Below are positions 13,944-43,256 of a stretch of DNA of 64,000 bases, piece by piece; positions within the stretch are counted from its first letter, which is position 1, and each line of letters opens with the position of its first letter. Origin of the DNA: Escherichia coli. GTDB lineage: Bacteria; Pseudomonadota; Gammaproteobacteria; Enterobacterales; Enterobacteriaceae. Location: NCBI RefSeq assembly GCF_016903815.1, contig NZ_CP069974.1; one strand, 5' to 3'. Under the pieces are notes generated by a model. It was not told the origin of the DNA. It made no database searches and was given only the letters and a program-made list of their open reading frames with translations. The position numbers and the translations under genes are program-made.

Positions 13944-14327
13944 TTAACCCTCATCATTTTCTGGAAAGAACCTCTCCATCTCAGATGACACCTTCTCCCT
14001 GATATCTTCGACCATATTCGCATATTCAAACTTTGGATTTCCGGAGACATGAGGACTGAGAGACTCAATACCCAAAATTTTCGCTACTGATGATTGTGTT
14101 TTTACAACGCATTCAAGAAGCAATTTATTAAACTCAGTCTGATTAAATGCAGACTCTTTACGCTCCATCTGAGTCTCATATACACGAAGCCCTAATTCGA
14201 GAAGCATAGTGGATATGCTTGAGAAACTTACATCTGTACTTTTAGCTCCTTCTGCACGTCTTCTTTCCACAATTTTATTTATTTTATAGACAATTTCGTC
14301 ACTGACATAAGCCTGCACTTTCGCCAT
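13944..14327 (-). CDS. traM: TraM relaxosome accessory protein
   Basis: 127 aa MAKVQAYVSDEIVYKINKIVERRRAEGAKSTDVSFSSISTMLLELGLRVYE..., matching TraM. Confidence 0.92.
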   Translation of the reverse strand: MAKVQAYVSDEIVYKINKIVERRRAEGAKSTDVSFSSISTMLLELGLRVYETQMERKESAFNQTEFNKLLLECVVKTQSSVAKILGIESLSPHVSGNPKFEYANMVEDIREKVSSEMERFFPENDEG

Positions 14328-14329: not shown

Positions 14330-14750
14330 GTATACCTCTTTATTTTCTTATCGCATCAAATTTATTTCACATATAAAAAAAAGACAATTCATCGATGAAT
14401 CGAATCGTGACGCAAGTTACGAAAATTACGATTCATGCAGCAAATCACATCACGAATTGAATCTAGAGTCAATTCGCTTTAACTCGTTGTTTTATTATTA
14501 CTGATTCATCTATGAGTTGTGTTAAATTCATTGGTGAATCATATGCGATTCACCAATGAATCCTTTTTATAATGTAAAATAAATTAAAATACATTATTTA
14601 AAACATAAGTTAATGATTCAAGTAGCAAATCAGCAAAAACTTGTTTTTGCGTAGTGTGTGGTGCTTTTGGTGGTGAGAACCACCAACCTGTTGAGCCTTT
14701 TTGTGGAGTGGGTTAAATTATTTACGGATAAAGTCACCAGAGGTGGAAAA
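14330..14750 (+). other. oriT: oriT (nic region, TraM/TraY/IHF binding region)
   Basis: GTAGTGTGT/GGTGCTTTTGGTGG at 14651-14673 is the R100/F-type nic sequence, with the predicted nick between 14659 and 14660 on the + strand. Inverted repeat TTGGTGGTGAGAACCACCAA at 14667-14686. TraM-type palindrome ATTCATTGGTGAATC-N6-GATTCACCAATGAAT at 14526-14561. Confidence 0.85.
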
Positions 14751-15260
14751 ATGAAAAAATGGATGTTAGCCATCTGCCTGATGTTTATAAATGAGATCTG
14801 CCAAGCCACTGATTGCTTTGATCTTGCAGGCCGGGATTACAAAATAGATCCTGATTTACTGAGAGCAATATCATGGCAAGAATCCCGTTACCGGGTTAAT
14901 GCCATCGGTATTAATCCGGTAACGGGATATGGCAGCGGACTGATGCAGGTAGATTCCCAGCATTTTAACGAACTGGCCCGCTACGGAATTAAGCCAGAAC
15001 ATCTGACAACAGATCCCTGCATGAACATTTATACCGGTGCTTATTATCTGGCAATAGCATTTAAAAAATGGGGCGTCACCTGGGAGGCCGTTGGTGCATA
15101 CAATGCCGGATTCAGGAAAACCGAACGCCAGAACCAGAGACGTCTTGCCTACGCATCAGATGTTTACCGGATTTATACCGGGATAAAAAGCAGTAAAGGT
15201 ATCCGGCTTCCGGCCACGAAGAAATCACTTCCGGAAATTAACAGCGTGCAGAACAATTAA
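14751..15260 (+). CDS. ORF169 / gene X lytic transglycosylase (P19 family)
   Basis: 169 aa [23 protein letters not shown]... with the SLT motif ISWQESRY. The track ORF starts at 14658 but that extension crosses the nic site. RBS GAGGTGG lies before 14751. Confidence 0.88.
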
Positions 15261-15507: not shown

Positions 15508-15557
15508 ATAATATAAGTAAAGCCCCGAAAATTTTTTCGGGGCTTTACTTATATTAT
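15508..15557. terminator. bidirectional hairpin between convergent orf169 and yubP
   Basis: Near-perfect palindrome ATAATATAAGTAAAGCCCCGAAAA/TTTTTTCGGGGCTTTACTTATATTAT with a GC core stem and flanking A/T runs. Confidence 0.7.
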
Positions 15558-16378
15558 CATGACTTCCACTTTCTGAACTGTTCGGCAATCACCCATAACG
15601 CCTTGTTGATTCTTATATCACCATCAATACCTGTAATGGCTCTTGTCCTGGTATTTTTCCCGGAGGCACTTCGCCCCGATAATCCACCTTTTATCATATT
15701 CTCCTGAACCCGCTGCCAGGTTGTCCAGAGATCGTTCTGTTTGTCTTCCCGACGACGGGGAGTAATTATCTGTTCAGGTGTCACTGGCGTTTTATTTTCA
15801 TCTTCATACCTGACCATCAGTGCAGCTCTGCCAAATAAATGTTGCTCGTCACTGTTAAGATGAATTTCTTTCATCGCCTCCATATTATCAGTGACCTTAT
15901 CAAAGACACCGAGCACTTCATACGCTCCCTCGATAACCTGCCCGACAATATCACCTTTATGTGGAACGCGGATTTCGCCAAAATTATTTCCGCACACCAG
16001 GCCATTTGTGCAGACAAAACGAAAAATTCCGGGGATCATCTGATAACTGGATGAACCATCATGTGAATTAAGCAGGATAATTTCAGGAACTTCCTGTCCG
16101 TTAATATGCCCTTCCCTGCGAAGACGTAACATATGTTTACTGTATTCGCGACGTCCCAAATCACGAACCCGACTCTGACAGGCAAAGAATGGCTGGAAAC
16201 CTTCATCACGTAACTTATTGATGATATTGATTGTTGGAATATACGTATAACGTTCACTCCGGGACTCATGTTTATCACCGGAAAATACCGAAGGCACGAA
16301 CTGCATTAATTCATCATCCGTTAAAGGACGTTCACGGCGGATGGAATTATACCGACCAAAACGGGAAGCTAATCGCAT
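15557..16378 (-). CDS. yubP: YubP-like DUF932 protein (F ORF273)
   Basis: 273 aa from MRLASRFGRYNSIRRERPLTDDELMQFVPSVF.... The track ORF extends 27 codons further upstream. Position next to orf169 matches F. Confidence 0.75.
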   Translation of the reverse strand: MRLASRFGRYNSIRRERPLTDDELMQFVPSVFSGDKHESRSERYTYIPTINIINKLRDEGFQPFFACQSRVRDLGRREYSKHMLRLRREGHINGQEVPEIILLNSHDGSSSYQMIPGIFRFVCTNGLVCGNNFGEIRVPHKGDIVGQVIEGAYEVLGVFDKVTDNMEAMKEIHLNSDEQHLFGRAALMVRYEDENKTPVTPEQIITPRRREDKQNDLWTTWQRVQENMIKGGLSGRSASGKNTRTRAITGIDGDIRINKALWVIAEQFRKWKS

Positions 16379-16496
16379 AACAGCTACTCCTTTATGAAAG
16401 AATAAATTTAATAAAAAATTTTTCCGCTTAATATCATCCCCCCCGATCTCCATTAACAAGATTGCAACAATCAGGAGGGGTATTCATCACATCCGG

Positions 16497-16784
16497 TCAG
16501 CAGATCGCCCGGATATCGAGGCCGGCACGCTTAATCTGACGCAGGAACTGTTTGAAGTGATCGGCTTCCGCAATGTTGATATGGCGGAACTGCTTATCCA
16601 CACCCTGACTGAGCGCGTAGCTATAACTGAAGGCCATCTTTTCCGGGTGGCTTTTGCGATATTTTTTCAGCTCAGTCAGGCTGCTGAATTCCAGGACGTC
16701 CCACTCTTCCCCGGTGTTTTTTTTCTTCCCGGCAACAAGAAGCGTGTACGACGCGGTGTTAACGTGGATATTTCGGGTACTCAT
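16497..16784 (-). CDS. yubO: YubO-like 95-aa leading-region protein
   Basis: 95-aa ORF with RBS GAGAGGAGAAAGCAGG before the ATG, immediately downstream (minus sense) of repeat A1. Confidence 0.65.
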   Translation of the reverse strand: MSTRNIHVNTASYTLLVAGKKKNTGEEWDVLEFSSLTELKKYRKSHPEKMAFSYSYALSQGVDKQFRHINIAEADHFKQFLRQIKRAGLDIRAIC

Positions 16785-16804
16785 CCTGCTTTCTCCTCTC
16801 TCTG

Positions 16805-17392
16805 GTTTTCAGCCCCCATCATCTGTTGAGTTTCGGGAGCCGCGGTTTTGACGTTTTGCGGGGACCTGCCTTTTGTTCCCTCCGGTATTCACCATCACCT
16901 TTTTGAGAACCTTCGCCGCAAGGGGCATCACTGCCACGGACGGAAACGACTGTCCGGGGGCAGACCGCAAAAGTTTTTGCCTGCTTCTGGGCAAAAAGTT
17001 TTGCGGGATGTGCATTTCACCCCTGGACTGGCGGAGACGGTTGTGGCTGTCTTTGCCCCCGGCGACAGGGGCTTAAACAGGTGAATGGCACCGGACAGAA
17101 CAACGGGCAGGGACCCGCCGCAACGACGTGAAGCGCGGTTTGCGAAACGGCGTTGCCCCTTACATCCCGGCGGTCTTTTGCCGGGATGCCAGGAGCGCAG
17201 GCCACGGCGCGACAGAGGCGGCGCGACCGGAACGGTCGCTGCAAGCCAGGGGTTTTCACGCATCGGACCGTAGCGACAGCCCGAAACCGCGCCAGCGGGT
17301 TCGGCGGAGACTGGCAGGTGCGCCAGCAGCTGCCTGTCGGAGTCGGGCCTGACGACCGGATGCCGCCAGGCAGCCGGGAGCCGAAGGTGCGC
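16805..17392 (-). promoter_or_regulatory. GC-rich leading-region hairpin repeat, copy A1 (Frpo/ssi-like)
   Basis: About 590 nt, nearly identical to 28590-29177 and diverged from 34284-34848. Outer arms 16840-16870 / 17106-17138 enclose an inner 17-bp hairpin at 16965-17006. Overlapping ORFs on both strands are taken as non-coding. Confidence 0.6.
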
Positions 17393-19735
17393 GTGCGACA
17401 GGAAGTCGCTTAACGTATTGTTTTACATTGATAAAACCAGCTATCCCATTAGCTGTAGCCTACCGGGACAGGCGTTGCCGGCAACGGCGGGGTCTGAAGC
17501 TCCCGGGACAACGAGAGCCGGGCGTCAGCCCGGGTAATGCCCCGTGAGGGGCTTTACCTTGCTGCAAGCATCATGCGGCAGGAGAGCAAGGCTGGTCAGA
17601 AGGGTTAACACATGTGAACTGTTGATAAACACCGTTATCGGCAACAGGCCAAAGATGCTGACAGGCCTGAACCAAAAGGTACGGGGTCCGGTTGCTACCT
17701 CGCGCACAGGGAGCACATGGGCGCAGAGACCCCCGGTGAAGAGACAGAACCCGCCCTGACCCTCTGTATGTTAAGCGGAACCTGGTAAACCCGTATCGCT
17801 GCCTCACAGGCAGGTGAACCGCAAGGAACACTGTTAGCGGTGCGGGCATAGGAGGACGGAAAAAGCGAATGCCCGGCTGTAATAACCGGGATACGGGGCA
17901 GGTTCCCCGACGCGAAAGCGGGCAGACTTCCGTCTGGTCTTTAATTGCATGAAAAGCTGTAAAGCAGTCAAAAGGATATCAGCGAGATGAATACACACAT
18001 CAGTGTGTCCACGATACCCCACCCGACAGGCTGGCACACCATAAACTGGAAAGCATGCCATGCCCGGGTGCGAAAGCTACAGTTACGGATTGCAAAGGCA
18101 ACCCGACAGCAACAATGGCGGCAGGTCAGAGAACTACAGCGCATCCTCACCCGCTCATTCTCCGGCAAAGCCGTGGCTGTCAGGCGTGTAACTGAAAATA
18201 CCGGTAAAAGGACACCCGGTATTGACGGAAAAATATGGCACACACCGAAGGAGAAATGGGAAGGAATATGCAGCCTGAATCTGTGTGGTTACAGGCCACA
18301 GCCACTACGGCGAATACATATCCCAAAATCAAACGGCAAAACGCGACCGCTGGGCATACCCACAATGAGGGACCGGGCCATGCAGGCACTGTGGCTGCTG
18401 GCTCTGGAACCCGTATCCGAGACCACTGCTGACCATAACAGCTATGGTTTCAGACCAATGCGCAGCACGCATGACGCCATTGAGTCCATTTTTCTGCGGA
18501 TGAGCCAGAAAGTATCGCCCAAATGGATACTGGAGGGCGATATTAAAGGGTGCTTCGATAACATCAGCCATGACTGGCTGCTTTCCCATATTCCGATGGA
18601 CAGGAGACTGCTTAAAAAATGGTTGAAAGCAGGTTACATGGAAAGAGGCGTGTTTAACCATACGAACAGCGGGACACCGCAGGGAGGCATCATATCCCCT
18701 GTTCTCGCCAACATGGCTCTGGACGGACTGGAGAAGGAACTGATGCAAACGTTCAGGAAAAGTGGTTATCACAGTGCAAAGCACCAGGTGAATTATGTGA
18801 GATATGCTGATGATTTCATCTGTTCAGGCAGCTCCCGTGAATTGCTGGAAAATGAGGTCAGACCACTGATTGCAGCTTTCATGCGCGAACGAGGGCTGGA
18901 ACTGTCGGAAGAAAAAACAGCGATCACACATATAGATAAAGGCTTCGACTTTTTAGGGCAGAACGTCAGGAAGTACAACGGTAAAATGCTGATTAAACCG
19001 TCGAAGAAAAACCTGAAGAACTTCCTCTGTAAAGTCAGAGAAATAATTAAACGCAATCCGACGCTCCCGGCATGGAAACTGATAGGCCAGCTAAACCCGG
19101 TGATCCGGGGATGGGCTACCTATCACCGACACGTCGTGGCGAAAGAAACATTTAATTATGTCGACACCCAAATCTGGCGAGCTATATGGCGATGGTGTGT
19201 AAGACGGCATCCCCGGAAAGGATTGCGGTGGATCGCCGGACGATACTTCTCCTTTGAAGGCAGGCGCTGGATCTTTAAAGCCATAACCCCGGAAGGGAAA
19301 ATTCTGACACTCTTCCGGGCAATGGAAACACCGATAAAGCGCCATATAAAAATCAAAGGCGAAGCAACACCATACACCCCCGGAATGGAAATCTACTTTG
19401 AACGTCGTCTGGATCTAATCTGGAAAGGCAAATCAAAGAAGATGAAGACAGTAGTTCAACTCTGGAAGAGGCAGGGGAAACACTGTCCGCAGTGCGGACA
19501 ACTCATAACCAACCAGACCGGATGGAATATACATCACCGGATCAGGAAAGTTATGGGCGGCAGTGACGAACTGACCAATCTCGAGTTGTTACATCCGAAC
19601 TGCCACCGACAGTTACACAGCAGGGAAGCCGGTGCTCACCGAAAGCACTTATAAAGGCTTGAGCGGAGTGCGGGGAAACTCGCACGCTCCGTTCTTAGGG
19701 GGCGGCGGCGCAGCAATGTGCCGCTGCTACCCGAC
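17393..19735 (+). mobile_element. group II intron, type 1, copy 1
   Basis: 5' end GTGCGACAGGAAGTCGC (an alternative GTGCGC lies 6 nt upstream). Domain IV ORF encodes RT-maturase-HNH. Domain V GAGCGGAGTGCGGGGAAACTCGCACGCTCCGTTC at 19661-19694. Domain VI has a bulged A 7 nt from the 3' end ...CTACCCGAC. Confidence 0.85.
17987..19654 (+). CDS. group II intron-encoded protein (RT, maturase X, HNH endonuclease)
   Basis: 555 aa with RT motifs TPQGGIISPVLAN and YVRYADDF. C-terminal CPQCG...HHRIRKVMGGSDELTNLELLHPNCHRQLH is HNH-like. Confidence 0.9.
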   Translation: MNTHISVSTIPHPTGWHTINWKACHARVRKLQLRIAKATRQQQWRQVRELQRILTRSFSGKAVAVRRVTENTGKRTPGIDGKIWHTPKEKWEGICSLNLCGYRPQPLRRIHIPKSNGKTRPLGIPTMRDRAMQALWLLALEPVSETTADHNSYGFRPMRSTHDAIESIFLRMSQKVSPKWILEGDIKGCFDNISHDWLLSHIPMDRRLLKKWLKAGYMERGVFNHTNSGTPQGGIISPVLANMALDGLEKELMQTFRKSGYHSAKHQVNYVRYADDFICSGSSRELLENEVRPLIAAFMRERGLELSEEKTAITHIDKGFDFLGQNVRKYNGKMLIKPSKKNLKNFLCKVREIIKRNPTLPAWKLIGQLNPVIRGWATYHRHVVAKETFNYVDTQIWRAIWRWCVRRHPRKGLRWIAGRYFSFEGRRWIFKAITPEGKILTLFRAMETPIKRHIKIKGEATPYTPGMEIYFERRLDLIWKGKSKKMKTVVQLWKRQGKHCPQCGQLITNQTGWNIHHRIRKVMGGSDELTNLELLHPNCHRQLHSREAGAHRKHL

Positions 19736-20048
19736 CCGGCAGACAGGACAACACTGCAGTAGTCAGAATCAGAGCAGGAAGAAAAAGAGAATAATCACAG
19801 GGAAGGTGATGTGATTTCTGACAGGCCATAACCAGAGAAGGCGGGGGAAAAGAACGGGCGCCGCAGGCGCGCGTTCATCCCCGTTCCTGAAGGGAAACGA
19901 CCTTCCTGAAGTCAGGTTGTTCATGCCCGTACAACATCAGCAAGGAGAAAGGGGCTACCGGCGAACCAGCAGCCCCTTTATAAAGGCGCTTCAGTAGTCA
20001 GACCAGCATCAGTCCTGAAAAGGCGGGCCTGCGCCCGCCTCCAGGTTG

Positions 20049-20313: not shown

Positions 20314-21165
20314 TTAAACACGAGGCATATAGGTCTGATTCCGATATTCAATTGGAGTCAGACCTTTTAATTTCAGGCTAATTCTTCTGCTGTTGTAGTA
20401 TTCAATATATTCCGTAACAGCATCCTTCAGTTCGCTTATATTACTGAACTCATCAAGATAAAAACACTCCGACTTTAAGGTTCCAAAGAAACACTCCACC
20501 ACAGCATTATCCAGACAATTGCCTTTTCTGGACATGCTTTGTTTAATACCATGTTCTTTAAGGATATTTTGATATCTTCTCATACGATACTGCCATCCCT
20601 GGTCAGAGTGCAGAACAGGATGCTCGTGAGGATTAAGCTTTTTGAATGCCTGATCGAGCATATTCTCAACCATGTTCATCACTGGTCTTTCCGAAAGGCT
20701 GTAAGAAATAACTTCGTTGTTGAAGAGATCTATTACTGGAGACAAATACAGCTTGCGCCCATTGACTGCAAATTCAGTAACATCGGTAACCCACTTCTCG
20801 TTTGGCCGCGTAGCCTTGAAATCTCTTTGGAGAACATTAGGGGCGGTTTGCCCTACCTCTCCTCTGTAAGAGCGGTATCGCTTGACCTTAATCGCTGCTT
20901 TAAGTGAGAGGGTTCCCATCAGGCGCTGAACAGCTTTATGGTTAATCTGTTTCCCTTCTCGATGAAGAGACAGCGTTACCCTACGGTATCCGTATCGGCC
21001 TCTATTCTCGTGATAAATCTCACTAATACGCTTTTTAACGTCCGCATACTTGTCAGGCTTGCTGAGAGCCTTTAGATGATAATAAAACGTACTGCGCGGT
21101 ATCTCCGCAGCCCTGAGAAGCTCATCAAGAGGATAAAACTGCCTTAGCTCGTTGAGTACTTTCAC
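20314..21165 (-). CDS. insB: IS150 OrfB (DDE integrase domain)
   Basis: 283 aa with an IS3-family integrase core ...HSDQGWQY...[12 protein letters not shown].... Confidence 0.9.
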
Positions 21166-21683
21166 TTTTTCGTGGGATGAGCTAAGGCTTTCAGCTTTTT
21201 TAGATACATAAGCCGCGTTTCAAGAAATCGAACTTGCCTTTCAAGATCCTCAATGCGTCGGTCTTTTGACAGCTCCAATGCTGATGCCGCTTTTTCTGGA
21301 TCAACTGATATTGCAATGTTTCTTTTGGTGCCAATCTTGAGCGCGCGTAAACCAGCTTCTCCGCGCTCTTCATAGACCTTCAGCCACCTGGCTACAGAAC
21401 CACTACCAGCAAGCATAAAGTGAGCAGCAGCCTGATTAAGGGACATGTGCTGCTCGATCACAGCTTTCACGACCTTAATACGCAACTCTGGATCAGCACT
21501 AACGCCTTTAGGTTTGGGAATTAAACCTTTTTCTCCATGTTTTTCATAGAGGGCAACCCATGTCCTGACCTGGGTTCGGGGGACACCAAAACGTGCCGAG
21601 ATGATCCTGTAACCATCATCAGTTGTGAAGTAGTGATTCACGACTTCAAGGCGCTTTTCAAAAGGGTATTTTGGCTTTGACAT
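21162..21683 (-). CDS. insA: IS150 OrfA (HTH)
   Basis: 173 aa MSKPKYPFEKRLEVVNHYFTTDDGYRIISARFGVPRTQVRTWV..., overlapping orfB as expected for -1 frameshifting. Confidence 0.9.
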   Translation of the reverse strand: MSKPKYPFEKRLEVVNHYFTTDDGYRIISARFGVPRTQVRTWVALYEKHGEKGLIPKPKGVSADPELRIKVVKAVIEQHMSLNQAAAHFMLAGSGSVARWLKVYEERGEAGLRALKIGTKRNIAISVDPEKAASALELSKDRRIEDLERQVRFLETRLMYLKKLKALAHPTKK

Positions 21684-25868: not shown

Positions 25869-28529
25869 GTAGGGTAGGGTACGTGTGGTCTTTCAAGATA
25901 AATGGCGAATATGTCCTGCTTATCTTGAGTTAGATCACCGTTACCCCCCCTCCGAACCGTACGTGCACCTTTCAATGCATACGGCTCTCCATTGCTAGCT
26001 TATTGGGGATAAACTCATTTAGCAGAATCCCCACTTGAGACAGGTGGTTGCAGGAGTATTCTTCCCTTTTCCTGTCTCAGATCGGGTAGTTTTCCGCTAT
26101 GTAACTTGTCGTGGCAACTTGCGCACAAAATCATCGTTTTCCGGCGGCGTGCGATCATCATTAGTTGCCACAGGCTGGGTTTATATCCGGCCTTACGACC
26201 TTTCTTCAGGTCTTTTAGCTTTCTGACATGATGTACTTCGCAGCGCCCAGTCTTCGCACAATACTCGCAGATCCTTGCCCCTAATCGACGCATGATCTCT
26301 GTTGTGCGGGTTGTGATATGTGCGGTTCTCGGTTCCGTATCGACAATCGTTGTTCGGTTGCGATTGACATGTTTGAGTTTGAAAACCTCAATCTTTCGGG
26401 ATCCATTTTTGGCCTGAACGGTAATAGCCAGATCTCCATTATTTTGCCGTAGCGATTTGGCGACTTTATTCACTGAACTACGTCGTTTATTCGCTAGGGT
26501 CTTAAAAAGGCTTATTTGCCATATGAAATATAATTTTGATAATTTATATTTCATGTCCAGCGCCAGACTGTAGTAGTTCGCCAATCCGCGCATTTCCGCG
26601 TTGAAAGTCAGAACAATTTCAGCTTCACTGAGATTTTGTAGACTTGAACGATGTACAGCCTTCACATTCTCATAACAGCCATATTTCTTTTGGTGACAAA
26701 ATTTAGCGGCTATATTGTCAGGAACGAAGAGCTGCACAATTCCTGTGGTGGATCTCCGGAGAGCGTGCCGCCCTTGCATTTTCTGCTTCAGCAATTTCTT
26801 TGCATCTGCCTGTCTGATTTCATAGCCTAAAAAATTAACTCCTTCTGAGATATGGCGGATCCTGGTCTTTGCTTCATTAACTTCCAATCCCAGTGAAGTA
26901 GTAATAAAGTTTCTGACCTGTCTTGATATATGTTCAGCATCTTTCTTCGAGCCGATGACACCAATTACGAAGTCATCAGCATATCGAACATAGTACATAC
27001 GCCTGAAGTTTGGATCGTTCATGACCTGAGATGGTATAGAACGTTTTTCTTCAAGCAGTCGTTCAATTTCTTTCTTTATGGCTTCTTTTTCTGATTCAGA
27101 ATCAGTTGCCATACCGTCTACTTTCTTTCGTAGTTTATGAATCTTATGGGCCAGCCTGTTCATATCTGGATTCGCTCTTCGTTTTGTACCGCTTGTATAT
27201 GCAGGAATTAAGTTCTGTTCTACAAAACGGTCCAGTTTGTCGAGGTATATATTTGCCAGTAAGGGAGAAATTATCCCACCTTGTGGCGTGCCAGAATATG
27301 AGCGATGGTATTTCCAATTGTCCACATATCCTGCCTTCAGCCACTGTTCGATTAATTTCAGGAAATTCTTATCCTTAATTTTCTCTGCCAGTGTATTCAG
27401 CAATAGTTTGTGGGGGATATTGTCAAAGAAACCTTTGATATCAACATCCACGATCCATTTAACTCCGTTCCAGACTGGACGAATAGATCTGAGCGCAGTT
27501 TCACACGAACGTTTTGGTCTGAATCCATGAGAGTGTTCAGAGAATACTGGTTCATAAACCCTTTCCAGAATAATTCTTGCTACTTCTTGCGCCAGTTTAT
27601 CGTCTCCACCTGGAATCCCCAGCGGTCTGGTTTTTCCGTCCTTTTTTGGGATCTGAACTCTGCGTACAGGTTTCGCTACGTATTCTCTACTCCGCAATGT
27701 TTTTGCCAGCTTCTCTGCTCTTTCGATAGAGAAGCCATCAATGGTATCTGTTGATACACCTTGAGTCAGTGCACCTGCATTGGCCCGTATATTCACGTAG
27801 GCTTGCAGCCACAGTCCGGGCTCACACGCAATTTTGTATAGATTACGTACTGGATACCCTTTTTTTGAAGCATCCTCAATTCCATCTAATCTTTTCTCAA
27901 GTTCATCAGGCAGCATTGGCTAACCCTCCTCTTAGAGATTGATGTATCTAACAACTGTCTCCCTTCCCCGCAGCACTGTGAGGCTTTCATCTCCCTTCCG
28001 GTTGATTTATACCTTTGCTGCTTCCGTATAATGCGGACTGCCGTAGCCCATTACAGGCCGACCTTGAGTACTATGGAGACTCCGCTACCATGCTGGGTAT
28101 AAATCCAGTTTAGGTAGTCCCGTAGTTTCACGGTGTGGAGATGCGATGTACTTAGGATGTCTTTCGATCGTTTAACTATTTCATCAATAGCTGGCCCGTT
28201 AGAGTGGTCACAATCAACGTAGGGCGGATTTCTTGTGCTATTACGGGAATAACGCTTCAATCGTTCTGCGTTATTGGTTTCCTGTTTCCCACATAGATCT
28301 CGACTTCAACAAACCCAGTTTATCCATATACATCTTGCATTGAGTGGTGATACTTATAACGATTTCCGTATTCACCACCCTTTTCTGTGGATGCTATGTT
28401 CACCTCTCCTTTTCAGGATCTCCGAGCCTGTTACCAAGCGAGGCTAACCACAGTATGCAATGGCTATACCACTAAGCCATGTTGCTTTTCATGCAACACT
28501 CCATAAAACACCGCGCTTCAACGGCGCAC
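25869..28529 (-). mobile_element. group II intron, type 2, inside ssb (sense orientation)
   Basis: Minus strand begins GTGCGCCGTTGAAGCGCGG at 28529. Domain V GAGCCGTATGCATTGAAAGGTGCACGTACGGTTC is the reverse complement of 25954-25987. Ends ...CCCTACCCTAC at 25869. 2661 nt with an internal RT ORF. Confidence 0.88.
26015..27916 (-). CDS. group II intron-encoded protein (RT, maturase, HNH-like C-terminus)
   Basis: 633 aa with GTPQGGIISPLLANIYL and YVRYADDFVIGV, and C-terminal CEYCAKTGRCEVHHVRKL...CASCHDKLHSG. Confidence 0.9.
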   Translation of the reverse strand: MLPDELEKRLDGIEDASKKGYPVRNLYKIACEPGLWLQAYVNIRANAGALTQGVSTDTIDGFSIERAEKLAKTLRSREYVAKPVRRVQIPKKDGKTRPLGIPGGDDKLAQEVARIILERVYEPVFSEHSHGFRPKRSCETALRSIRPVWNGVKWIVDVDIKGFFDNIPHKLLLNTLAEKIKDKNFLKLIEQWLKAGYVDNWKYHRSYSGTPQGGIISPLLANIYLDKLDRFVEQNLIPAYTSGTKRRANPDMNRLAHKIHKLRKKVDGMATDSESEKEAIKKEIERLLEEKRSIPSQVMNDPNFRRMYYVRYADDFVIGVIGSKKDAEHISRQVRNFITTSLGLEVNEAKTRIRHISEGVNFLGYEIRQADAKKLLKQKMQGRHALRRSTTGIVQLFVPDNIAAKFCHQKKYGCYENVKAVHRSSLQNLSEAEIVLTFNAEMRGLANYYSLALDMKYKLSKLYFIWQISLFKTLANKRRSSVNKVAKSLRQNNGDLAITVQAKNGSRKIEVFKLKHVNRNRTTIVDTEPRTAHITTRTTEIMRRLGARICEYCAKTGRCEVHHVRKLKDLKKGRKAGYKPSLWQLMMIARRRKTMILCASCHDKLHSGKLPDLRQEKGRILLQPPVSSGDSAK

Positions 28530-28568
28530 TCCTACGAGAATGACCTTGTTAATGCCACGAACTGCCAT
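28530..28568 (-). CDS. ssb: plasmid ssb, exon 1 (codons 1-13)
   Basis: ATGGCAGTTCGTGGCATTAACAAGGTCATTCTCGTAGGA encodes MAVRGINKVILVG, preceded by RBS AGGAGG, and abuts the intron 5' GTGCG. Confidence 0.88.
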
Positions 28569-28589: not shown

Positions 28590-29177
28590 GTTTTCAGCCC
28601 CCATCATCTTTTGAGTTTCGGGAGCCGCGGTTTTGACGTTTTGCGGGGACCTGCCTTTTGTTCCCTCCGGTATTCACCATCACCTTTTTGAGAACCTTCG
28701 CCGCATGGGGCATCACTGCCACGGACGGAAACGACTGTCCGGGGGCAGACCGCAAAAGTTTTTGCCTGCTTCTGGGCAAAAAGTTTTGCGGGATGTGCAT
28801 TTCACCCCTGGACTGGCGGAGACGGTTGTGGCTGTCTTTGCCCCCGGCGACAGGGGCTTAAACAGGTGAATGGCACCGGACAGAACAACGGGCAGGGACC
28901 CGCCGCAACGACGTGAAGCGCGGTTTGCGAAACGGCGTTGCCCCTTACATCCCGGCGGTCTTTTGCCGGGATGCCAGGAGCGCAGGCCACGGCGCGACAG
29001 AGGCGGCGCGACCGGAACGGTCGCTGCAAGCCAGGGGTTTTCACGCATCGGACCGTAGCGACAGCCCGAAACCGCGCCAGCGGGTTCGGCGGAGACTGGC
29101 AGGTGCGCCAGCAGCTGCCTGTCGGAGTCGGGCCTGACGACCGGATGCCGCCAGGCAGCCGGGAGCCGAAGGTGCGC
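28590..29177 (-). promoter_or_regulatory. GC-rich leading-region hairpin repeat, copy A2 (Frpo/ssi-like), upstream of ssb
   Basis: Offset +11785 from A1, with only a couple of substitutions seen by eye. It starts 22 nt from the ssb ATG. Confidence 0.6.
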
Positions 29178-31520
29178 GTGCGACAGGAAGTCGCTTAACG
29201 TATTGTTTTACATTGATAAAACCAGCTATCCCATTAGCTGTAGCCTACCGGGACAGGCGTTGCCGGCAACGGCGGGGTCTGAAGCTCCCGGGACAACGAG
29301 AGCCGGGCGTCAGCCCGGGTAATGCCCCGTGAGGGGCTTTACCTTGCTGCAAGCATCATGCGGCAGGAGAGCAAGGCTGGTCAGAAGGGTTAACACATGT
29401 GAACTGTTGATAAACACCGTTATCGGCAACAGGCCAAAGATGCTGACAGGCCTGAACCAAAAGGTACGGGGTCCGGTTGCTACCTCGCGCACAGGGAGCA
29501 CATGGGCGCAGAGACCCCCGGTGAAGAGACAGAACCCGCCCTGACCCTCTGTATGTTAAGCGGAACCTGGTAAACCCGTATCGCTGCCTCACAGGCAGGT
29601 GAACCGCAAGGAACACTGTTAGCGGTGCGGGCATAGGAGGACGGAAAAAGCGAATGCCCGGCTGTAATAACCGGGATACGGGGCAGGTTCCCCGACGCGA
29701 AAGCGGGCAGACTTCCGTCTGGTCTTTAATTGCATGAAAAGCTGTAAAGCAGTCAAAAGGATATCAGCGAGATGAATACACACATCAGTGTGTCCACGAT
29801 ACCCCACCCGACAGGCTGGCACACCATAAACTGGAAAGCATGCCATGCCCGGGTGCGAAAGCTACAGTTACGGATTGCAAAGGCAACCCGACAGCAACAA
29901 TGGCGGCAGGTCAGAGAACTACAGCGCATCCTCACCCGCTCATTCTCCGGCAAAGCCGTGGCTGTCAGGCGTGTAACTGAAAATACCGGTAAAAGGACAC
30001 CCGGTATTGACGGAAAAATATGGCACACACCGAAGGAGAAATGGGAAGGAATATGCAGCCTGAATCTGTGTGGTTACAGGCCACAGCCACTACGGCGAAT
30101 ACATATCCCAAAATCAAACGGCAAAACGCGACCGCTGGGCATACCCACAATGAGGGACCGGGCCATGCAGGCACTGTGGCTGCTGGCTCTGGAACCCGTA
30201 TCCGAGACCACTGCTGACCATAACAGCTATGGTTTCAGACCAATGCGCAGCACGCATGACGCCATTGAGTCCATTTTTCTGCGGATGAGCCAGAAAGTAT
30301 CGCCCAAATGGATACTGGAGGGCGATATTAAAGGGTGCTTCGATAACATCAGCCATGACTGGCTGCTTTCCCATATTCCGATGGACAGGAGACTGCTTAA
30401 AAAATGGTTGAAAGCAGGTTACATGGAAAGAGGCGTGTTTAACCATACGAACAGCGGGACACCGCAGGGAGGCATCATATCCCCTGTTCTCGCCAACATG
30501 GCTCTGGACGGACTGGAGAAGGAACTGATGCAAACGTTCAGGAAAAGTGGTTATCACAGTGCAAAGCACCAGGTGAATTATGTGAGATATGCTGATGATT
30601 TCATCTGTTCAGGCAGCTCCCGTGAATTGCTGGAAAATGAGGTCAGACCACTGATTGCAGCTTTCATGCGCGAACGAGGGCTGGAACTGTCGGAAGAAAA
30701 AACAGCGATCACACATATAGATAAAGGCTTCGACTTTTTAGGGCAGAACGTCAGGAAGTACAACGGTAAAATGCTGATTAAACCGTCGAAGAAAAACCTG
30801 AAGAACTTCCTCTGTAAAGTCAGAGAAATAATTAAACGCAATCCGACGCTCCCGGCATGGAAACTGATAGGCCAGCTAAACCCGGTGATCCGGGGATGGG
30901 CTACCTATCACCGACACGTCGTGGCGAAAGAAACATTTAATTATGTCGACACCCAAATCTGGCGAGCTATATGGCGATGGTGTGTAAGACGGCATCCCCG
31001 GAAAGGATTGCGGTGGATCGCCGGACGATACTTCTCCTTTGAAGGCAGGCGCTGGATCTTTAAAGCCATAACCCCGGAAGGGAAAATTCTGACACTCTTC
31101 CGGGCAATGGAAACACCGATAAAGCGCCATATAAAAATCAAAGGCGAAGCAACACCATACACCCCCGGAATGGAAATCTACTTTGAACGTCGTCTGGATC
31201 TAATCTGGAAAGGCAAATCAAAGAAGATGAAGACAGTAGTTCAACTCTGGAAGAGGCAGGGGAAACACTGTCCGCAGTGCGGACAACTCATAACCAACCA
31301 GACCGGATGGAATATACATCACCGGATCAGGAAAGTTATGGGCGGCAGTGACGAACTGACCAATCTCGAGTTGTTACATCCGAACTGCCACCGACAGTTA
31401 CACAGCAGGGAAGCCGGTGCTCACCGAAAGCACTTATAAAGGCTTGAGCGGAGTGCGGGGAAACTCGCACGCTCCGTTCTTAGGGGGCGGCGGCGCAGCA
31501 ATGTGCCGCTGCTACCCGAC
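29178..31520 (+). mobile_element. group II intron, type 1, copy 2
   Basis: Same sequence and same insertion point as copy 1 (…GCCGAAGGTGCGC | intron | CCGGCAGACAGG…). Confidence 0.85.
29772..31439 (+). CDS. group II intron-encoded protein (RT-maturase-HNH), copy 2
   Basis: The 555-aa track translation is identical to copy 1. Confidence 0.9.
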   Translation: MNTHISVSTIPHPTGWHTINWKACHARVRKLQLRIAKATRQQQWRQVRELQRILTRSFSGKAVAVRRVTENTGKRTPGIDGKIWHTPKEKWEGICSLNLCGYRPQPLRRIHIPKSNGKTRPLGIPTMRDRAMQALWLLALEPVSETTADHNSYGFRPMRSTHDAIESIFLRMSQKVSPKWILEGDIKGCFDNISHDWLLSHIPMDRRLLKKWLKAGYMERGVFNHTNSGTPQGGIISPVLANMALDGLEKELMQTFRKSGYHSAKHQVNYVRYADDFICSGSSRELLENEVRPLIAAFMRERGLELSEEKTAITHIDKGFDFLGQNVRKYNGKMLIKPSKKNLKNFLCKVREIIKRNPTLPAWKLIGQLNPVIRGWATYHRHVVAKETFNYVDTQIWRAIWRWCVRRHPRKGLRWIAGRYFSFEGRRWIFKAITPEGKILTLFRAMETPIKRHIKIKGEATPYTPGMEIYFERRLDLIWKGKSKKMKTVVQLWKRQGKHCPQCGQLITNQTGWNIHHRIRKVMGGSDELTNLELLHPNCHRQLHSREAGAHRKHL

Positions 31521-33815: not shown

Positions 33816-34046
33816 TCAGTTAAAAGCGCGTTTCAGTTCGAGTGTGCGGAGCACCTGCCCGAAGGCCGTGTTTTTCATGGCGGGGATGTGTACACCACGC
33901 CCCCGGTGAAAACTCCGGGCAATGTGTCGCCCGAAGGCTTTCAGCACGGGGTCAATTTCCGGCGCGGGGATGTCTTCGCGTCTGAAACGGGGATGACGGC
34001 GGGGCTTTACAGCCGCTGCGGAAGGTGAAACAATACTTACTGTCAT
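33816..34046 (-). CDS. hypothetical basic 76-aa protein
   Basis: ORF with RBS AAGAGG 7 nt before the ATG. First gene downstream (minus sense) of repeat A3. Confidence 0.5.
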   Translation of the reverse strand: MTVSIVSPSAAAVKPRRHPRFRREDIPAPEIDPVLKAFGRHIARSFHRGRGVHIPAMKNTAFGQVLRTLELKRAFN

Positions 34047-34283
34047 AATTTAGCCTCTTATGACGTTAATTAATGAAACCGTAAAGACTGTTCGTGCAGT
34101 CTCTGCGGTGTGGATTAAGCAGGTCCCTGACCTGCTTTTTTCATATCTGCGTCTGACGTTCTCCGGTGTTTTCCTCCTTCTGTTCCTGCGTTCTCATTAC
34201 CTGCCAGCCGGATGACTGACAGAACACATAAATGCGTATTGCCGGAGCCTGAAATAAATCCTGATTTTTAAAGAACATCACCC

Positions 34284-34848
34284 GTTGAGTTTCGGGAGCC
34301 GCGGTTTTGACGTTTCGCGGGAACCTGCTGCTGTATACCCTGTGGTATGAACTTCACCCGTTTGAGAACCTTCGCCGCAAGGGGCATCACTGCCACGGCC
34401 TGACGCACCTGTCCTGGGCAGAACGCAAAATTTTTTACCGGGTTTTGGGTAAAAAATTTTGTGGGCTGTTCATTTACCCTGGACAGTCAGTGCGGCAGGT
34501 TGTGGCTGTATCAGCCCCAGGCGACAGGGACTCATACGGGTGTGTGGCACCGGCAGGCAATGAGCAGGGACCCGCCGCAACGACGGAGAGCGCGTGCGCG
34601 AAACGGCGTTGCCCCTTACATCCCGGCGGCCTTTTGCCGGGATGCCGGGAGCGCAGGCCACGGCGCGACAAGGGTGGCGCGACCGGAACGGTCGCTGCAA
34701 GCCCGGGGTTTTCACGCATCGGACCGTAGCGACAGCCCGAAACCGCGCCAGCGGGTTCGGCGGAGACTGGCGGGTGCGCCAGCAGCTGCCTGTCGGAGTC
34801 GGGCCTGACGACCGGATGCCGCCAGGCAGCCGGGAGCCGAAGGTGCGC
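34284..34848 (-). promoter_or_regulatory. GC-rich leading-region hairpin repeat, copy A3 (diverged)
   Basis: Alignable to A1/A2 along its whole length with many substitutions. The inner hairpin 34424-34463 keeps pairing through compensatory changes. The last approx. 75 nt before the intron are identical to A1. Confidence 0.55.
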
Positions 34849-37191
34849 GTGCGACAGGAAGTCGCTTAACGTATTGTTTTACATTGATAAAACCAGCTAT
34901 CCCATTAGCTGTAGCCTACCGGGACAGGCGTTGCCGGCAACGGCGGGGTCTGAAGCTCCCGGGACAACGAGAGCCGGGCGTCAGCCCGGGTAATGCCCCG
35001 TGAGGGGCTTTACCTTGCTGCAAGCATCATGCGGCAGGAGAGCAAGGCTGGTCAGAAGGGTTAACACATGTGAACTGTTGATAAACACCGTTATCGGCAA
35101 CAGGCCAAAGATGCTGACAGGCCTGAACCAAAAGGTACGGGGTCCGGTTGCTACCTCGCGCACAGGGAGCACATGGGCGCAGAGACCCCCGGTGAAGAGA
35201 CAGAACCCGCCCTGACCCTCTGTATGTTAAGCGGAACCTGGTAAACCCGTATCGCTGCCTCACAGGCAGGTGAACCGCAAGGAACACTGTTAGCGGTGCG
35301 GGCATAGGAGGACGGAAAAAGCGAATGCCCGGCTGTAATAACCGGGATACGGGGCAGGTTCCCCGACGCGAAAGCGGGCAGACTTCCGTCTGGTCTTTAA
35401 TTGCATGAAAAGCTGTAAAGCAGTCAAAAGGATATCAGCGAGATGAATACACACATCAGTGTGTCCACGATACCCCACCCGACAGGCTGGCACACCATAA
35501 ACTGGAAAGCATGCCATGCCCGGGTGCGAAAGCTACAGTTACGGATTGCAAAGGCAACCCGACAGCAACAATGGCGGCAGGTCAGAGAACTACAGCGCAT
35601 CCTCACCCGCTCATTCTCCGGCAAAGCCGTGGCTGTCAGGCGTGTAACTGAAAATACCGGTAAAAGGACACCCGGTATTGACGGAAAAATATGGCACACA
35701 CCGAAGGAGAAATGGGAAGGAATATGCAGCCTGAATCTGTGTGGTTACAGGCCACAGCCACTACGGCGAATACATATCCCAAAATCAAACGGCAAAACGC
35801 GACCGCTGGGCATACCCACAATGAGGGACCGGGCCATGCAGGCACTGTGGCTGCTGGCTCTGGAACCCGTATCCGAGACCACTGCTGACCATAACAGCTA
35901 TGGTTTCAGACCAATGCGCAGCACGCATGACGCCATTGAGTCCATTTTTCTGCGGATGAGCCAGAAAGTATCGCCCAAATGGATACTGGAGGGCGATATT
36001 AAAGGGTGCTTCGATAACATCAGCCATGACTGGCTGCTTTCCCATATTCCGATGGACAGGAGACTGCTTAAAAAATGGTTGAAAGCAGGTTACATGGAAA
36101 GAGGCGTGTTTAACCATACGAACAGCGGGACACCGCAGGAAGGCATCATATCCCCTGTTCTCGCCAACATGGCTCTGGACGGACTGGAGAAGGAACTGAT
36201 GCAAACGTTCAGGAAAAGTGGTTATCACAGTGCAAAGCACCAGGTGAATTATGTGAGATATGCTGATGATTTCATCTGTTCAGGCAGCTCCCGTGAATTG
36301 CTGGAAAATGAGGTCAGACCACTGATTGCAGCTTTCATGCGCGAACGAGGGCTGGAACTGTCGGAAGAAAAAACAGCGATCACACATATAGATAAAGGCT
36401 TCGACTTTTTAGGGCAGAACGTCAGGAAGTACAACGGTAAAATGCTGATTAAACCGTCGAAGAAAAACCTGAAGAACTTCCTCTGTAAAGTCAGAGAAAT
36501 AATTAAACGCAATCCGACGCTCCCGGCATGGAAACTGATAGGCCAGCTAAACCCGGTGATCCGGGGATGGGCTACCTATCACCGACACGTCGTGGCGAAA
36601 GAAACATTTAATTATGTCGACACCCAAATCTGGCGAGCTATATGGCGATGGTGTGTAAGACGGCATCCCCGGAAAGGATTGCGGTGGATCGCCGGACGAT
36701 ACTTCTCCTTTGAAGGCAGGCGCTGGATCTTTAAAGCCATAACCCCGGAAGGGAAAATTCTGACACTCTTCCGGGCAATGGAAACACCGATAAAGCGCCA
36801 TATAAAAATCAAAGGCGAAGCAACACCATACACCCCCGGAATGGAAATCTACTTTGAACGTCGTCTGGATCTAATCTGGAAAGGCAAATCAAAGAAGATG
36901 AAGACAGTAGTTCAACTCTGGAAGAGGCAGGGGAAACACTGTCCGCAGTGCGGACAACTCATAACCAACCAGACCGGATGGAATATACATCACCGGATCA
37001 GGAAAGTTATGGGCGGCAGTGACGAACTGACCAATCTCGAGTTGTTACATCCGAACTGCCACCGACAGTTACACAGCAGGGAAGCCGGTGCTCACCGAAA
37101 GCACTTATAAAGGCTTGAGCGGAGTGCGGGGAAACTCGCACGCTCCGTTCTTAGGGGGCGGCGGCGCAGCAATGTGCCGCTGCTACCCGAC
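34849..37191 (+). mobile_element. group II intron, type 1, copy 3
   Basis: Same ends and same insertion point as copies 1 and 2. Confidence 0.85.
35443..37110 (+). CDS. group II intron-encoded protein, copy 3 (G-to-E change in an RT motif)
   Basis: 555 aa, identical to copies 1 and 2 except TPQGGIISP becomes TPQEGIISP (GGA to GAA near 36139). Confidence 0.85.
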   Translation: MNTHISVSTIPHPTGWHTINWKACHARVRKLQLRIAKATRQQQWRQVRELQRILTRSFSGKAVAVRRVTENTGKRTPGIDGKIWHTPKEKWEGICSLNLCGYRPQPLRRIHIPKSNGKTRPLGIPTMRDRAMQALWLLALEPVSETTADHNSYGFRPMRSTHDAIESIFLRMSQKVSPKWILEGDIKGCFDNISHDWLLSHIPMDRRLLKKWLKAGYMERGVFNHTNSGTPQEGIISPVLANMALDGLEKELMQTFRKSGYHSAKHQVNYVRYADDFICSGSSRELLENEVRPLIAAFMRERGLELSEEKTAITHIDKGFDFLGQNVRKYNGKMLIKPSKKNLKNFLCKVREIIKRNPTLPAWKLIGQLNPVIRGWATYHRHVVAKETFNYVDTQIWRAIWRWCVRRHPRKGLRWIAGRYFSFEGRRWIFKAITPEGKILTLFRAMETPIKRHIKIKGEATPYTPGMEIYFERRLDLIWKGKSKKMKTVVQLWKRQGKHCPQCGQLITNQTGWNIHHRIRKVMGGSDELTNLELLHPNCHRQLHSREAGAHRKHL

Positions 37192-38080: not shown

Positions 38081-38506
38081 TCAGTCCAGAGCCGCGTAAA
38101 TCGCGTTGCATTCGGGGTGAAATTCGATGTGACGCCACAACTGCGCATCGCGCATCCGGTAAAGCTGGGTCAGTCCTGCATCCCCGCTGTCGTGGTACAG
38201 CCACAACTGGCGGTTAATCACAAGGGAGGTCAGGATGATGCCTGCGGCATCAGCACTCACGGTACGGTCAAACCAGTTTGCACCGTTCACCATGTGGAAA
38301 CGGTCGCCATCCGGCATCATGTAACCGCCACCGTCCGGCAGGCGGATGAAGTGCCAGAAGCCTCCCTGATATTCCGGCATCATTTTTTGCGCCAGCGCGT
38401 ACACATACGCCTCGGCATACAGAAAATCGTTGCCAAACAGATACGGCAGAAAGGAGAGACGGTCGCACTCTTCAACATTCAGAGTGACAGGTTTCGCATA
38501 TTGCAT
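38081..38506 (-). CDS. klcA: KlcA/ArdB-family antirestriction protein
   Basis: 141 aa [65 protein letters not shown].... Confidence 0.85.
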
Positions 38507-38548
38507 GATGTTTTCCTCCGTTGTTCACATATTCCGCGACACCGGGCG

Positions 38549-38774
38549 GTGCCGTGCCTCCATAAAAGCCGGGCGAACAGGCGGGGATGCAGGGGCGCAA
38601 GGGAAGCCGCAGCCTGACGCACACGGCTGACGGGAGTTGCAGGGTGAGACCGCGAAATCTGAGCGGGTGAACGACCGGAAAATCACGGCAGACGGGAAGG
38701 AGGGACCGGGTGACCGCAGCGGCGAAGCGTACCCTTGCATCAACGCCAGCCCGGCTAAGATGGAGGCACGGCAC
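38549..38774 (-). promoter_or_regulatory. Frpo-like single-strand promoter hairpin B1 upstream of klcA
   Basis: 15-bp perfect basal stem GTGCCGTGCCTCCAT / ATGGAGGCACGGCAC. The 3' arm carries TTGCAT (38735-38740), N15, then TAAGAT (38756-38761). AAG of the -10 faces AAA on the 5' arm, giving a 3-nt bubble. The base lies about 45 nt from the klcA ATG. Confidence 0.55.
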
Positions 38775-38922
38775 AGCCCGCACACGACGCTGAGGCCACA
38801 TAACTGAAAAACCACAAGGCCATGCCCTGCATGGCCGGGTAAAGCGGAGCCGGCGGCGACTTCCTTTGTGCTCTGTCCGGGGACCGGCAGGAAAAAGGCG
38901 GGGATTTACCCCGCCAGTGTCA

Positions 38923-40419: not shown

Positions 40420-41103
40420 TTACGCAGCCTCCGGCATAAACCAGTCATCATTCGCGGCCCCCTGCTGCATGGCCCGTTGCACGGCGGCAAGGCGTTGCTG
40501 CCCGGCACGGTGATACTGCTCAAGCAGCTCGATACCGATATACCGGCGTCCGGACTGGAGGGCGGCGACGCAGGTTGAGCCGCTGCCTGCAAACGGGTCC
40601 AGCACAATTGCGTTCGGGTGTGTGAAGCTCTCAATCAGCGGTTGCAGGCTGGTAACGGGCTTTTCCGTCGGGTGATGACGATTGCCAGAATATTTCCAGC
40701 CCAGCACGTCCGGCAGCGGGTTTTGTGGCAGACGTGGACGGCCTTTTGCCAGGATGTAGGCGCATTCGTGGCGATAGCCCACATATGCGGCCTTCGATGT
40801 GTAGTTTTTGGTGAAGACCAGGTGACCAACAACGCTGAATCCCGCATTTTTCCAGGCGGCCATAAAGCGATCGACGCGGTTCCAGCCGTAGAAGCTCACC
40901 ATCAGCGCGTCTTTTTTGAGTACGCGGTACATTTCATTACAGGCCGGTTGCAGCCATTCATCGGTTTTATCGCCGGCGATGGTGCGCCCGGAACGGTCAC
41001 GAAAACCGACGAGATATGGCGGGTCAGTTAATATGAAATCAATGGCGTTATCAGGGATACGCGTCATAACATCGATGCAGTTACCAAGGACAAAACGGGA
41101 CAT
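40420..41103 (-). CDS. orphan DNA methyltransferase (beta-class N6A/N4C, DPPY)
   Basis: 227 aa with motif IV ILTDPPYL early and motif I VLDPFAGSGSTCVAA late. No cognate endonuclease is present. Confidence 0.85.
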   Translation of the reverse strand: MSRFVLGNCIDVMTRIPDNAIDFILTDPPYLVGFRDRSGRTIAGDKTDEWLQPACNEMYRVLKKDALMVSFYGWNRVDRFMAAWKNAGFSVVGHLVFTKNYTSKAAYVGYRHECAYILAKGRPRLPQNPLPDVLGWKYSGNRHHPTEKPVTSLQPLIESFTHPNAIVLDPFAGSGSTCVAALQSGRRYIGIELLEQYHRAGQQRLAAVQRAMQQGAANDDWFMPEAA

Positions 41104-41487
41104 AACAACGCTCCTTCTCTTACAGAGGGCACCGGGAGGGCCCCCCTGTGGTGCCCGTTCCCCGCTGCCTGTGGGCTGTTCACCGCGTCCGGTAACGGGT
41201 CAGGCCGACCGTGGAATATCGCAGCCGTCGTCTTTTTGACGGCGAGAATATGCCGCGAAAGCGGCTTGAAGGGCGTTCATCAGAAAAGGGCGACAGGCTG
41301 GCGTACACTGTCACCGGTGCCAGCCGGGAGCAGTAAAAGCGCCCGTCCCGTGCCCGCCGGACGCGGGACACTGACCACAGGCAGCGTTCCTGCCGCGCCG
41401 CGTCAGCCGGCGCAGTAAAAAGAGGAGCACGGCGACATCCTTTGTCGGAAAAGAAACGGGCGGTTGCCCGCCCGTCTCCGTCATACT

Positions 41488-42607: not shown

Positions 42608-42789
42608 TGGGTAACCAGGTATTTTGTCCACATAACCGTGCGCAAAATGTTGTGGATAAGCAGGACACAGCAGCAATCCACAGCAGGCATACAACCGCAC
42701 ACCGAGGTTACTCCGTTCTACAGGTTACGACGACATGTCAATACTTGCCCTTGACAGGCATTGATGGAATCGTAGTCTCACGCTGATAG

Positions 42790-43175: not shown

Positions 43176-43256
43176 ATTCAGGCCAGTTATGCTTTCTGGC
43201 CTGTAACAAAGGACATTAAGTAAAGACAGATAAACGTAGACTAAAACGTGGTCGCA

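Follow-up and report, generated by a model that had tools for sequence, protein, structure and literature searches.

The leading region of the plasmid analysed here carries an inverted repeat in three dispersed copies, which we call A1, A2 and A3. They lie in a window of 64,000 nt, the whole stretch of Escherichia coli DNA under analysis (contig NZ_CP069974.1). What these A-type repeats are, and on which strand and in which direction they would act, was the question addressed here. The initial annotation described the repeat at A1 as a nested hairpin of about 300 nt with compensatory changes between copies, and likened it to the repeats known as Frpo/ssi in F and ColIb-P9. The coordinates of the features discussed are collected in Table 1.

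Table 1. Features of the leading region and their positions in the window
Feature	Position	Strand	Remarks
Copy A1 hairpin	16830-17148	+	Frpo1/ssiD-type (ssp1a); ygeA start codon 46 nt to the left
Copy A2 hairpin	28615-28933	+	Upstream of ssb, at the Frpo2/ssp1b position
Copy A3 hairpin	34289-34604	+	Diverged; core of F Frpo2 type; upstream of 76-aa ORF/DUF3560/methyltransferase operon
A1 apical stem-loop, A+T-rich	16965-17006	+	16 pairs and one G.G mismatch, 8-nt loop
Candidate TTGACG-N17-TTTTGT, 5' arm	16848-16876	+	6.2 bits; putative, best linear sigma-70-like match in F-like copies
Candidate -35 TGGACT within paired CCCTGGAC, 3' arm	17024-17029	+	Putative; weak PWM score
Third candidate TTGYGR (TTGYGG), foot of A+T-rich apical stem, 3' arm			Weak PWM score
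Conserved G+C-rich 244-nt flank, up to intron site	17149-17392	+	Contains small hairpin 17163-17188
Three identical 2,343-nt group II introns	17393-19735, 29178-31520, 34849-37191	+	
Second, different group II intron, in ssb	25869-28530	-	633-aa IEP, ORF 26015-27916
oriT nic region TGTGT^GGTGC	14647-14677	+	nic taken to be at 14660/14661
traM	13944-14327	-	
SLT-domain gene	about 14670-15260	+	
ygeA, 95 aa, first gene served by A1 in the proposed model	16497-16784	-	ORF and annotation
ygeB (DUF932)	15557-16378	-	DUF932 E = 2e-52

A long hairpin is present in three copies

Folded as ssDNA, the + strand of A1 (16830-17150) formed a single nested, imperfect hairpin with an MFE of -98.6 kcal/mol. 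Dinucleotide shuffles of this segment had a mean of -56.6 +/- 3.8 (z = -11.1), and none of 100 was equally stable. The nested hairpin described earlier was confirmed in this way, while its extent had been drawn too short: the base continues for about another 10 bp, and the outermost pair in DNA folding is 16830-17148. The strings on which that description had been built were all found at their coordinates, namely the outer arms (16840-16870 and 17106-17138), the stem-loops at 16965-17006 and 34424-34463 and the sequence TTGCCC-N15-TAAACA (17053-17079). DNA folding of A3 also resulted in a long hairpin (-88.2 kcal/mol, z = -7.8). Folding energies were scanned in 320-nt sliding windows from 13 to 46 kb on the + strand only (mean -48.9, SD 14.2). 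Within this range, the seven lowest-energy peaks included windows over all three copies or their G+C-rich right flanks.

The copies differ in their degree of divergence. A2 is identical to A1 at 318 of 319 positions, and the sole difference is A/T at 16921. A3 has about 73-75% identity to A1. The compensatory changes proposed for the apical stem are real: the G-C pair 16979/16992 of A1 is an A-T pair in A3 (34437/34450), and the G.G mismatch 16973/16998 has become a T-A pair. Over the whole hairpin, two-sided changes between A1 and A3 preserve 7 pairs and one-sided changes preserve 11.

RefSeq records place a 68-aa 'hypothetical protein' wholly within the Frpo hairpin, at 16809-17015 (-) and in the 28594-28800 region (-). 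The element is non-coding, and the ORF was most likely called in error.

The repeats belong to the class 1 Frpo/ssi family

Alignment with published Frpo/ssi sequences bore out the kinship suspected at the outset. A1 (16815-17165) matched ssiD of F (D90178.1) at 340 of 352 positions (96.6% identity); the ssiD sequence was taken from Samuel et al. 2024 (PMC11541004, Suppl. file 4). Identity to the ygeA-upstream region of F (NC_002483) was 97.5%. A3 showed 89% identity to the ssb-upstream region of F. Its apical stem (ACC/GGT), read as the reverse complement, is that of the F Frpo2 segment used in the published Frpo2-acrIIA4 construct. Matches by nhmmer were in the E = 1e-98 class.

We built a covariance model, R1, on a 172-nt core. 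In A1 the core scored 167.7 bits on the + strand and 48.3 bits on the - strand. A2 (28691-28865) scored 165.4 bits and A3 (34365-34539) 162.3 bits. Across the window R1 detected exactly these three sites and no others, in agreement with the three dispersed copies counted before. In Rfam, no gathering-level match overlapped the hairpins, and at E <= 5 there were chance hairpin or miRNA matches only, far under threshold. A megablast search with 16300-17500 matched at least 5,000 PLSDB records, mostly IncF plasmids of E. coli, Klebsiella and Salmonella. Many PLSDB records are matched in three places, and three copies are usual for IncFII-type plasmids.

Single-strand initiation sites of the PriA (n') or G4 (DnaG) type are sets of short hairpins of about 70-130 nt, which are independent of RNA polymerase and recognised by PriA or primase. 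The size and the homology of the A-type repeats would point to the RNA-polymerase-dependent ssiD type rather than to sites of these two types.

Every defining feature of the class 1 Frpo/ssi family that can be tested in sequence was observed on this plasmid: homology, a long hairpin specific to one strand, a position on the transferred strand, the orientation relative to the genes, and covariation in the form of compensatory changes. The A-type repeats in the leading region of this IncF plasmid are almost certainly class 1 ssDNA promoters and belong to the Frpo/ssi (ssp1) family; they would fold and direct early transcription toward oriT. Such elements are now named class 1 ssDNA promoters, ssp1a and ssp1b (PMC12672017; PMC13478746), and 13,089 Frpo homologues in 6,006 elements have been catalogued (PMC11541004). 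As all the features testable in sequence are present, the homologues are catalogued and the dependence on structure has been demonstrated, the element is already known and the first reading of it was right.

The hairpins lie on the transferred strand, upstream of leading-region genes

A nic motif, TAGTGTGT^GGTGCTTTT, was found on the + strand between traM and the SLT gene, 2.2 kb from A1. From established knowledge of F-like oriT, we take the nic position to be 14660/14661. At oriT sites of the F-like type, transfer of the nicked strand proceeds 5' to 3' and begins with the leading region. The motif lies on the + strand, which makes this strand of the window the transferred strand (T-strand). 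Rightward of oriT the - strand encodes ygeB and ygeA, then hok, psiA, psiB, the ParB-like yfjB, yfjA, ssb and others. The transferred + strand is therefore the template of these genes.

Each hairpin copy is located directly upstream of leading-region genes on the - strand. Exon 1 of ssb begins about 50 nt left of A2. To the left of A3, the - strand carries the 76-aa ORF, the DUF3560 gene and a SAM-dependent methyltransferase gene. In the 12 plasmid records compared (including E. ruysiae), the copies adjoin ssb or other leading-region genes.

Two further features were observed in these gene blocks. A match to the Rfam family AS-pc01 (antisense to pHK01_035; 98.9 bits) at 34041-34140 (+) sits between A3 and the first gene that A3 would serve, antisense to its transcript. 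A copy of IS150 (IS3 family) at 20314-21683 (-) lies between hok and psiA, within the operon that A2 would drive.

A model for early transcription from the folded strand

By analogy with F and ColIb-P9, the following course may be proposed. Starting at the nick (about 14660), the + strand would pass into the recipient in the 5' to 3' direction, and each inverted repeat of about 320 nt would fold on itself into a long imperfect hairpin. As known from the literature on F and ColIb-P9, the hairpin stem would mimic a duplex sigma-70 promoter. Host RNA polymerase, aided by SSB, would initiate with the transferred strand as template and head toward oriT; with this geometry, the polymerase would move toward lower coordinates. 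Transcription from A1 would serve ygeA-ygeB, from A2 ssb-yfjA-yfjB-psiB-psiA, and from A3 the 76-aa ORF, the DUF3560 gene and the methyltransferase gene. The same RNA could prime synthesis of the complementary strand. Once the strand has been made duplex, the hairpin would be gone and the promoter off, and expression would be a transient 'zygotic' burst.

For this plasmid, transcription and priming are assumed from published work on related elements. As reported in the later accounts that cite Masai & Arai 1997 (PMC9849209, PMC11541004, PMC7690428), the Frpo ssDNA stem-loop reconstitutes -35 and -10 boxes at which E. coli RNA polymerase initiates; SSB stimulates initiation and the RNA can prime DNA synthesis. 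For the F and ColIb copies, transcription or priming by RNA polymerase holoenzyme with SSB is known to require the single-stranded form. Frpo1 of F is responsible for ygeA/ygeB expression in transconjugants (PMC9849209). Class 1 start sites of pESBL have been mapped by 5' RACE (PMC12672017), and transcription-dependent priming occurs in vivo at ssp1 sites (bioRxiv 10.64898/2026.01.09.698686).

These reports also bear on whether the hairpin might be a priming (single-strand initiation) site and not a promoter for downstream genes. ssiD was originally obtained as a site of single-strand initiation, priming by the Frpo transcript is reported in vitro as well as in vivo, and the ssp2 hairpin stalls complementary-strand synthesis (bioRxiv 10.64898/2026.01.09.698686). 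However, deletion of Frpo1 or Frpo2 in F leaves transconjugants without early expression from the downstream reporter fusions to ygeA, ssb and yfjA (PMC9849209). Likewise, in the 12 plasmid records all copies are directly upstream of correctly oriented genes. We consider an exclusive priming function very unlikely. One and the same RNA serves as primer and as message, and thus priming is an added role of the promoter rather than an exclusive alternative to it.

Base pairing and the folding strand are maintained among relatives

We collected 36 homologous copies from 14 sources, the window and 13 further records. The records comprise F, three Klebsiella IncF plasmids, a Salmonella pSLT-like plasmid, two Enterobacter plasmids, a Yersinia plasmid, ColIb-P9, pO104_H7, an E. 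ruysiae contig, a Cedecea contig and a short contig that is probably misassigned. Among genome representatives there were just 8 PsiB loci, several of them on contaminating contigs, and the diversity was drawn from PLSDB instead.

An alignment of 24 full-length F-like hairpins was made with plain MAFFT, and the A1 structure was projected onto it without fitting (alignment A2). In this alignment 82% of the cells pair, compared to 41-48% when the partners are slid by 1-3 columns. Two-sided changes were present in 105 cells versus 50 +/- 5 after shuffling; these cell counts exceed the number of independent events, since the copies are related and partly mosaic. The covariation score was 0.125 versus 0.083 for shuffled alignments (reached in 0 of 500) and 0.04-0.06 for slid partners.

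A second alignment was made with the R1 model for the core of 30 distinct copies of all classes from 15 records (alignment A6). It superseded a first model alignment, A5, which included reverse-strand palindromic matches. Double-sided changes were found in 32 of 54 core pairs, compared to 19.4 +/- 1.9 after shuffling and 11-15 with slid partners, and the covariation score was 0.234 versus 0.097. Alignment A6 is fitted to a structure derived from A1, which inflates its pair counts; the unfitted alignment A2 gives the same direction. Single column pairs illustrate the exchange: 28/175 is A-T in 15 copies and G-C in 15, and 37/165 is C-G in 16, G-C in 7 and T-A in 7. RNAalifold on a MAFFT core alignment of all classes recovered 6 pairs only, because sequence alignment sets the arms out of register between classes. 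The covariation looked for in a larger alignment was hence present in both alignments, above shuffles.

The folding strand was the same throughout. In 36 of 36 copies the T-strand was more stable than its complement, by about 7-28 kcal/mol. At each locus R1 scored 75-168 bits on the T-strand and 31-62 bits on the complement. Conserved G.T pairs in alignment A6 (33/170, 34/169 and 51/148) are C.A mismatches on the opposite strand. Taken together, these data point to selection on the structure and on the folding strand.

These data also allow us to weigh whether the structure acts as RNA and not as folded ssDNA, either as a leader or terminator hairpin in a read-through mRNA (-) or as an antisense RNA of the + strand. 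Covariation does not distinguish + strand DNA from + strand RNA, the AS-pc01 antisense RNA match adjoins A3, and the - strand of A1 folds well too (z -8.5). Against an mRNA hairpin, the - strand fold is the weaker one in all 36 copies, and the conserved G.T pairs would turn into C.A in - strand RNA. Neither strand matched an Rfam family, and the scan of 16780-17460 gave no promoter-like site for a + strand RNA. In addition, published genetics link the activity to single-strandedness and to transfer orientation (PMC9849209, PMC11541004). An action at the RNA level is extremely unlikely. That the repeats are selfish or accidental and functionless, such as a MITE-type inverted repeat or a scar left by recombination, is next to negligible: the copies are dispersed, mosaic and homogenised within one plasmid, and such repeats mediate the insertion and loss of leading-region modules (PMC3817090), but many double changes keep pairing across diverged classes, the orientation relative to oriT is fixed at all loci, terminal duplications and a transposase are absent, and near-identical copies of F are functional by experiment (PMC9849209).

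The copies were also compared within and between plasmids. The first two copies within one plasmid are identical or nearly so (318/319 in the window; a = b in Kp13 and in Ecl15), yet they differ between plasmids. The two copies of F itself share no more than about 82% identity. In several copies, outer arms of the A1 type are combined with cores of the A3 type. The likeness within plasmids and these mosaics suggest concerted evolution, possibly by gene conversion between the repeats.

Dependence on structure was demonstrated by mutagenesis (Nasim 2004, as cited in PMC9849209). In the Frpo papers available to us, the 2026 NAR paper (PMC13478746) among them, we found no published covariation statistics. 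The covariation and strand-asymmetry figures given here are independent sequence-level support for the published structural model, which they leave unchanged.

Promoter hexamers in the hairpin

Within 16780-17460, no site passed a scan for the sigma-70 consensus. The PWM scan gave no well-scoring hexamer pair conserved across classes and revealed weak candidates only (Table 1). The candidate TTGACG-N17-TTTTGT is located at a conserved column in the F-like rows, with TTGAC invariant in alignment A2, and is absent from the IncI copies. F-like and IncI copies alike carry a nearly unchanged CCCTGGAC, whose pairing partner is GTCCGGGGG (columns 47-55 with 144-152 of alignment A6).

The apical A+T-rich stem-loop is kept in most class 1 copies. 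Its columns in alignment A6 (64-76 with 112-124) are A-T or T-A in 21-27 of 27 informative rows, and the column pair 74/114 shows G-C to A-T covariation. This stem-loop is possibly the UP-like part of the promoter.

TTGCCC-N15-TAAACA, put forward as -35 and -10 hexamers in the initial annotation with the assignment called uncertain, was rejected. Its 15-nt spacer is off range, and TTG and the first T of TAAACA are unconserved in the relatives. Furthermore, the published sequence of the Frpo2 construct stops short of TAAACA at its 3' end, although native flank at the insertion site of that construct might restore the outer arm. A transcription terminator was rejected as well; terminator-like matches were weak and at chance frequency.

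The repeat unit includes a conserved flank and a group II intron

The size of about 300 nt given at the outset holds for the hairpin, which measures about 320 nt. The unit that is repeated three times is much longer, about 2,984 nt, because each copy includes a conserved flank and a group II intron. The flank is 100% and 98% identical among the three copies and folds with z -4.1, about -4 on both strands. It is present at all three sites of an intron-free Enterobacter plasmid, and its first ~90 nt are also found in F and ColIb-P9. The repeat unit includes 17149-17392 and 19736-19780 (+) and the equivalents at the other two copies. The flank contains hairpins, a small perfect one (CATCCCGGCGG-TCTTTT-GCCGGGATG) and GCGCGACCGGAACGGTCGC, which are common to F, ColIb-P9 and Salmonella 'Frpo*' sequences.

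The protein of the 2,343-nt intron has reverse transcriptase, maturase and HNH domains. Comparison with the intron-free Enterobacter sites gave the target as GGTGCGC^CCGGCAG, 244 nt 3' of each hairpin. The occupied junction was found in at least 1,010 PLSDB records. An intron of the same length has been described at one site in pHN7A8-type FII-33 plasmids, in an account that leaves Frpo unmentioned (PMC8765060).

The second intron interrupts ssb behind codon 13, with the end of exon 1 at about 28531 and the start of exon 2 at 25868. The same arrangement was also seen in an Enterobacter plasmid. As this intron is in the sense of Frpo-driven transcription, early SSB would need splicing. A wider scenario can be drawn from these arrangements, in which the Frpo unit is a multi-copy homing platform for introns that are gained, or spread between the repeats, during the single-stranded stage in the recipient, the 3-kb repeats drive the homogenisation of A1 and A2 and the gain and loss of leading-region modules, and early SSB depends on splicing. 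We regard this scenario as speculative and rather improbable.

Further repeats and implications

Other structures were observed to the right of A3. A large T-strand hairpin at about 38545-38790 (+) lies upstream of an antirestriction gene (38081-38506). It is a candidate class 2 ssDNA promoter (ssp2): its position agrees with that of the published element, and by eye it appears clearly homologous to the 'Frpo' 4' candidate of Samuel et al. (PMC11541004). A large hairpin at 41110-41428 (+) lies upstream of a DNA methylase gene (40420-41103); the segment 41100-41500 folds with -106.5 kcal/mol (+) and -107.0 (-). Its position fits a class 3 (M.EcoGIX-type) ssDNA promoter candidate. At 42722-43212 a 43-nt unit is repeated in tandem about 11 times, with 71-91% identity between the copies; the array probably consists of plasmid iterons or is a partition site.

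Frpo-type promoters explain how anti-SOS, SSB and anti-restriction functions are expressed within minutes of plasmid entry, and for this reason they matter for how resistance plasmids spread. As a gain for annotation, class 1 ssDNA promoters can now be entered in three intergenic regions left blank so far or given the probably spurious 68-aa ORF.

Comparison with known systems

A1 is closest to Frpo1 of F, which is ssiD (ssp1a; Masai & Arai 1997). Identity is 96.6-97.5%, the strand is the same and the hairpin of ~320 nt is the same. The position also corresponds, with hok/flm on one side, ygeA on the other and oriT at a distance of about 2 kb. The hairpins have point differences only, for example in the apical stem, which has AAAAGTTTTTG here versus AAAA-TCTTTG in NC_002483. 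After about 130 nt the right flank of A1 diverges from F, and a group II intron is present here.

Frpo2 of F (ssp1b; Couturier et al. 2023) resembles the core of A3, with the apical ACC/GGT and the TGGACAGTCAG arm. The position of Frpo2 upstream of ssb is held here by A2, but with a Frpo1-type sequence. The Frpo2-type core is found instead at the third site, upstream of the DUF3560-methyltransferase operon, which F lacks. Thus F has two copies, whereas this plasmid has three.

Three dispersed leading-region copies are likewise present in ColIb-P9/pESBL (ssi1-ssi3; IncI1 class 1). Their core is homologous, with the same helices, the A+T-rich apical stem and CCCTGGAC, and R1 scores of 127-155 bits. 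In contrast, the IncI copies have no counterpart of the F-like outer stem (GCCGCGGTTTTGAC... / ...CGACG..GCGCGG), and consequently their hairpins are shorter, with spans of about 240-350 nt. The 328-nt IncI units, as published, extend over a segment displaced in the direction of the right-hand flank. Class 2 (ssp2, upstream of klcA/ardB) and class 3 (M.EcoGIX promoter) ssDNA promoters have no sequence homology to the A-type repeats, but follow the same logic of a long T-strand hairpin in the leading region upstream of anti-defence genes.
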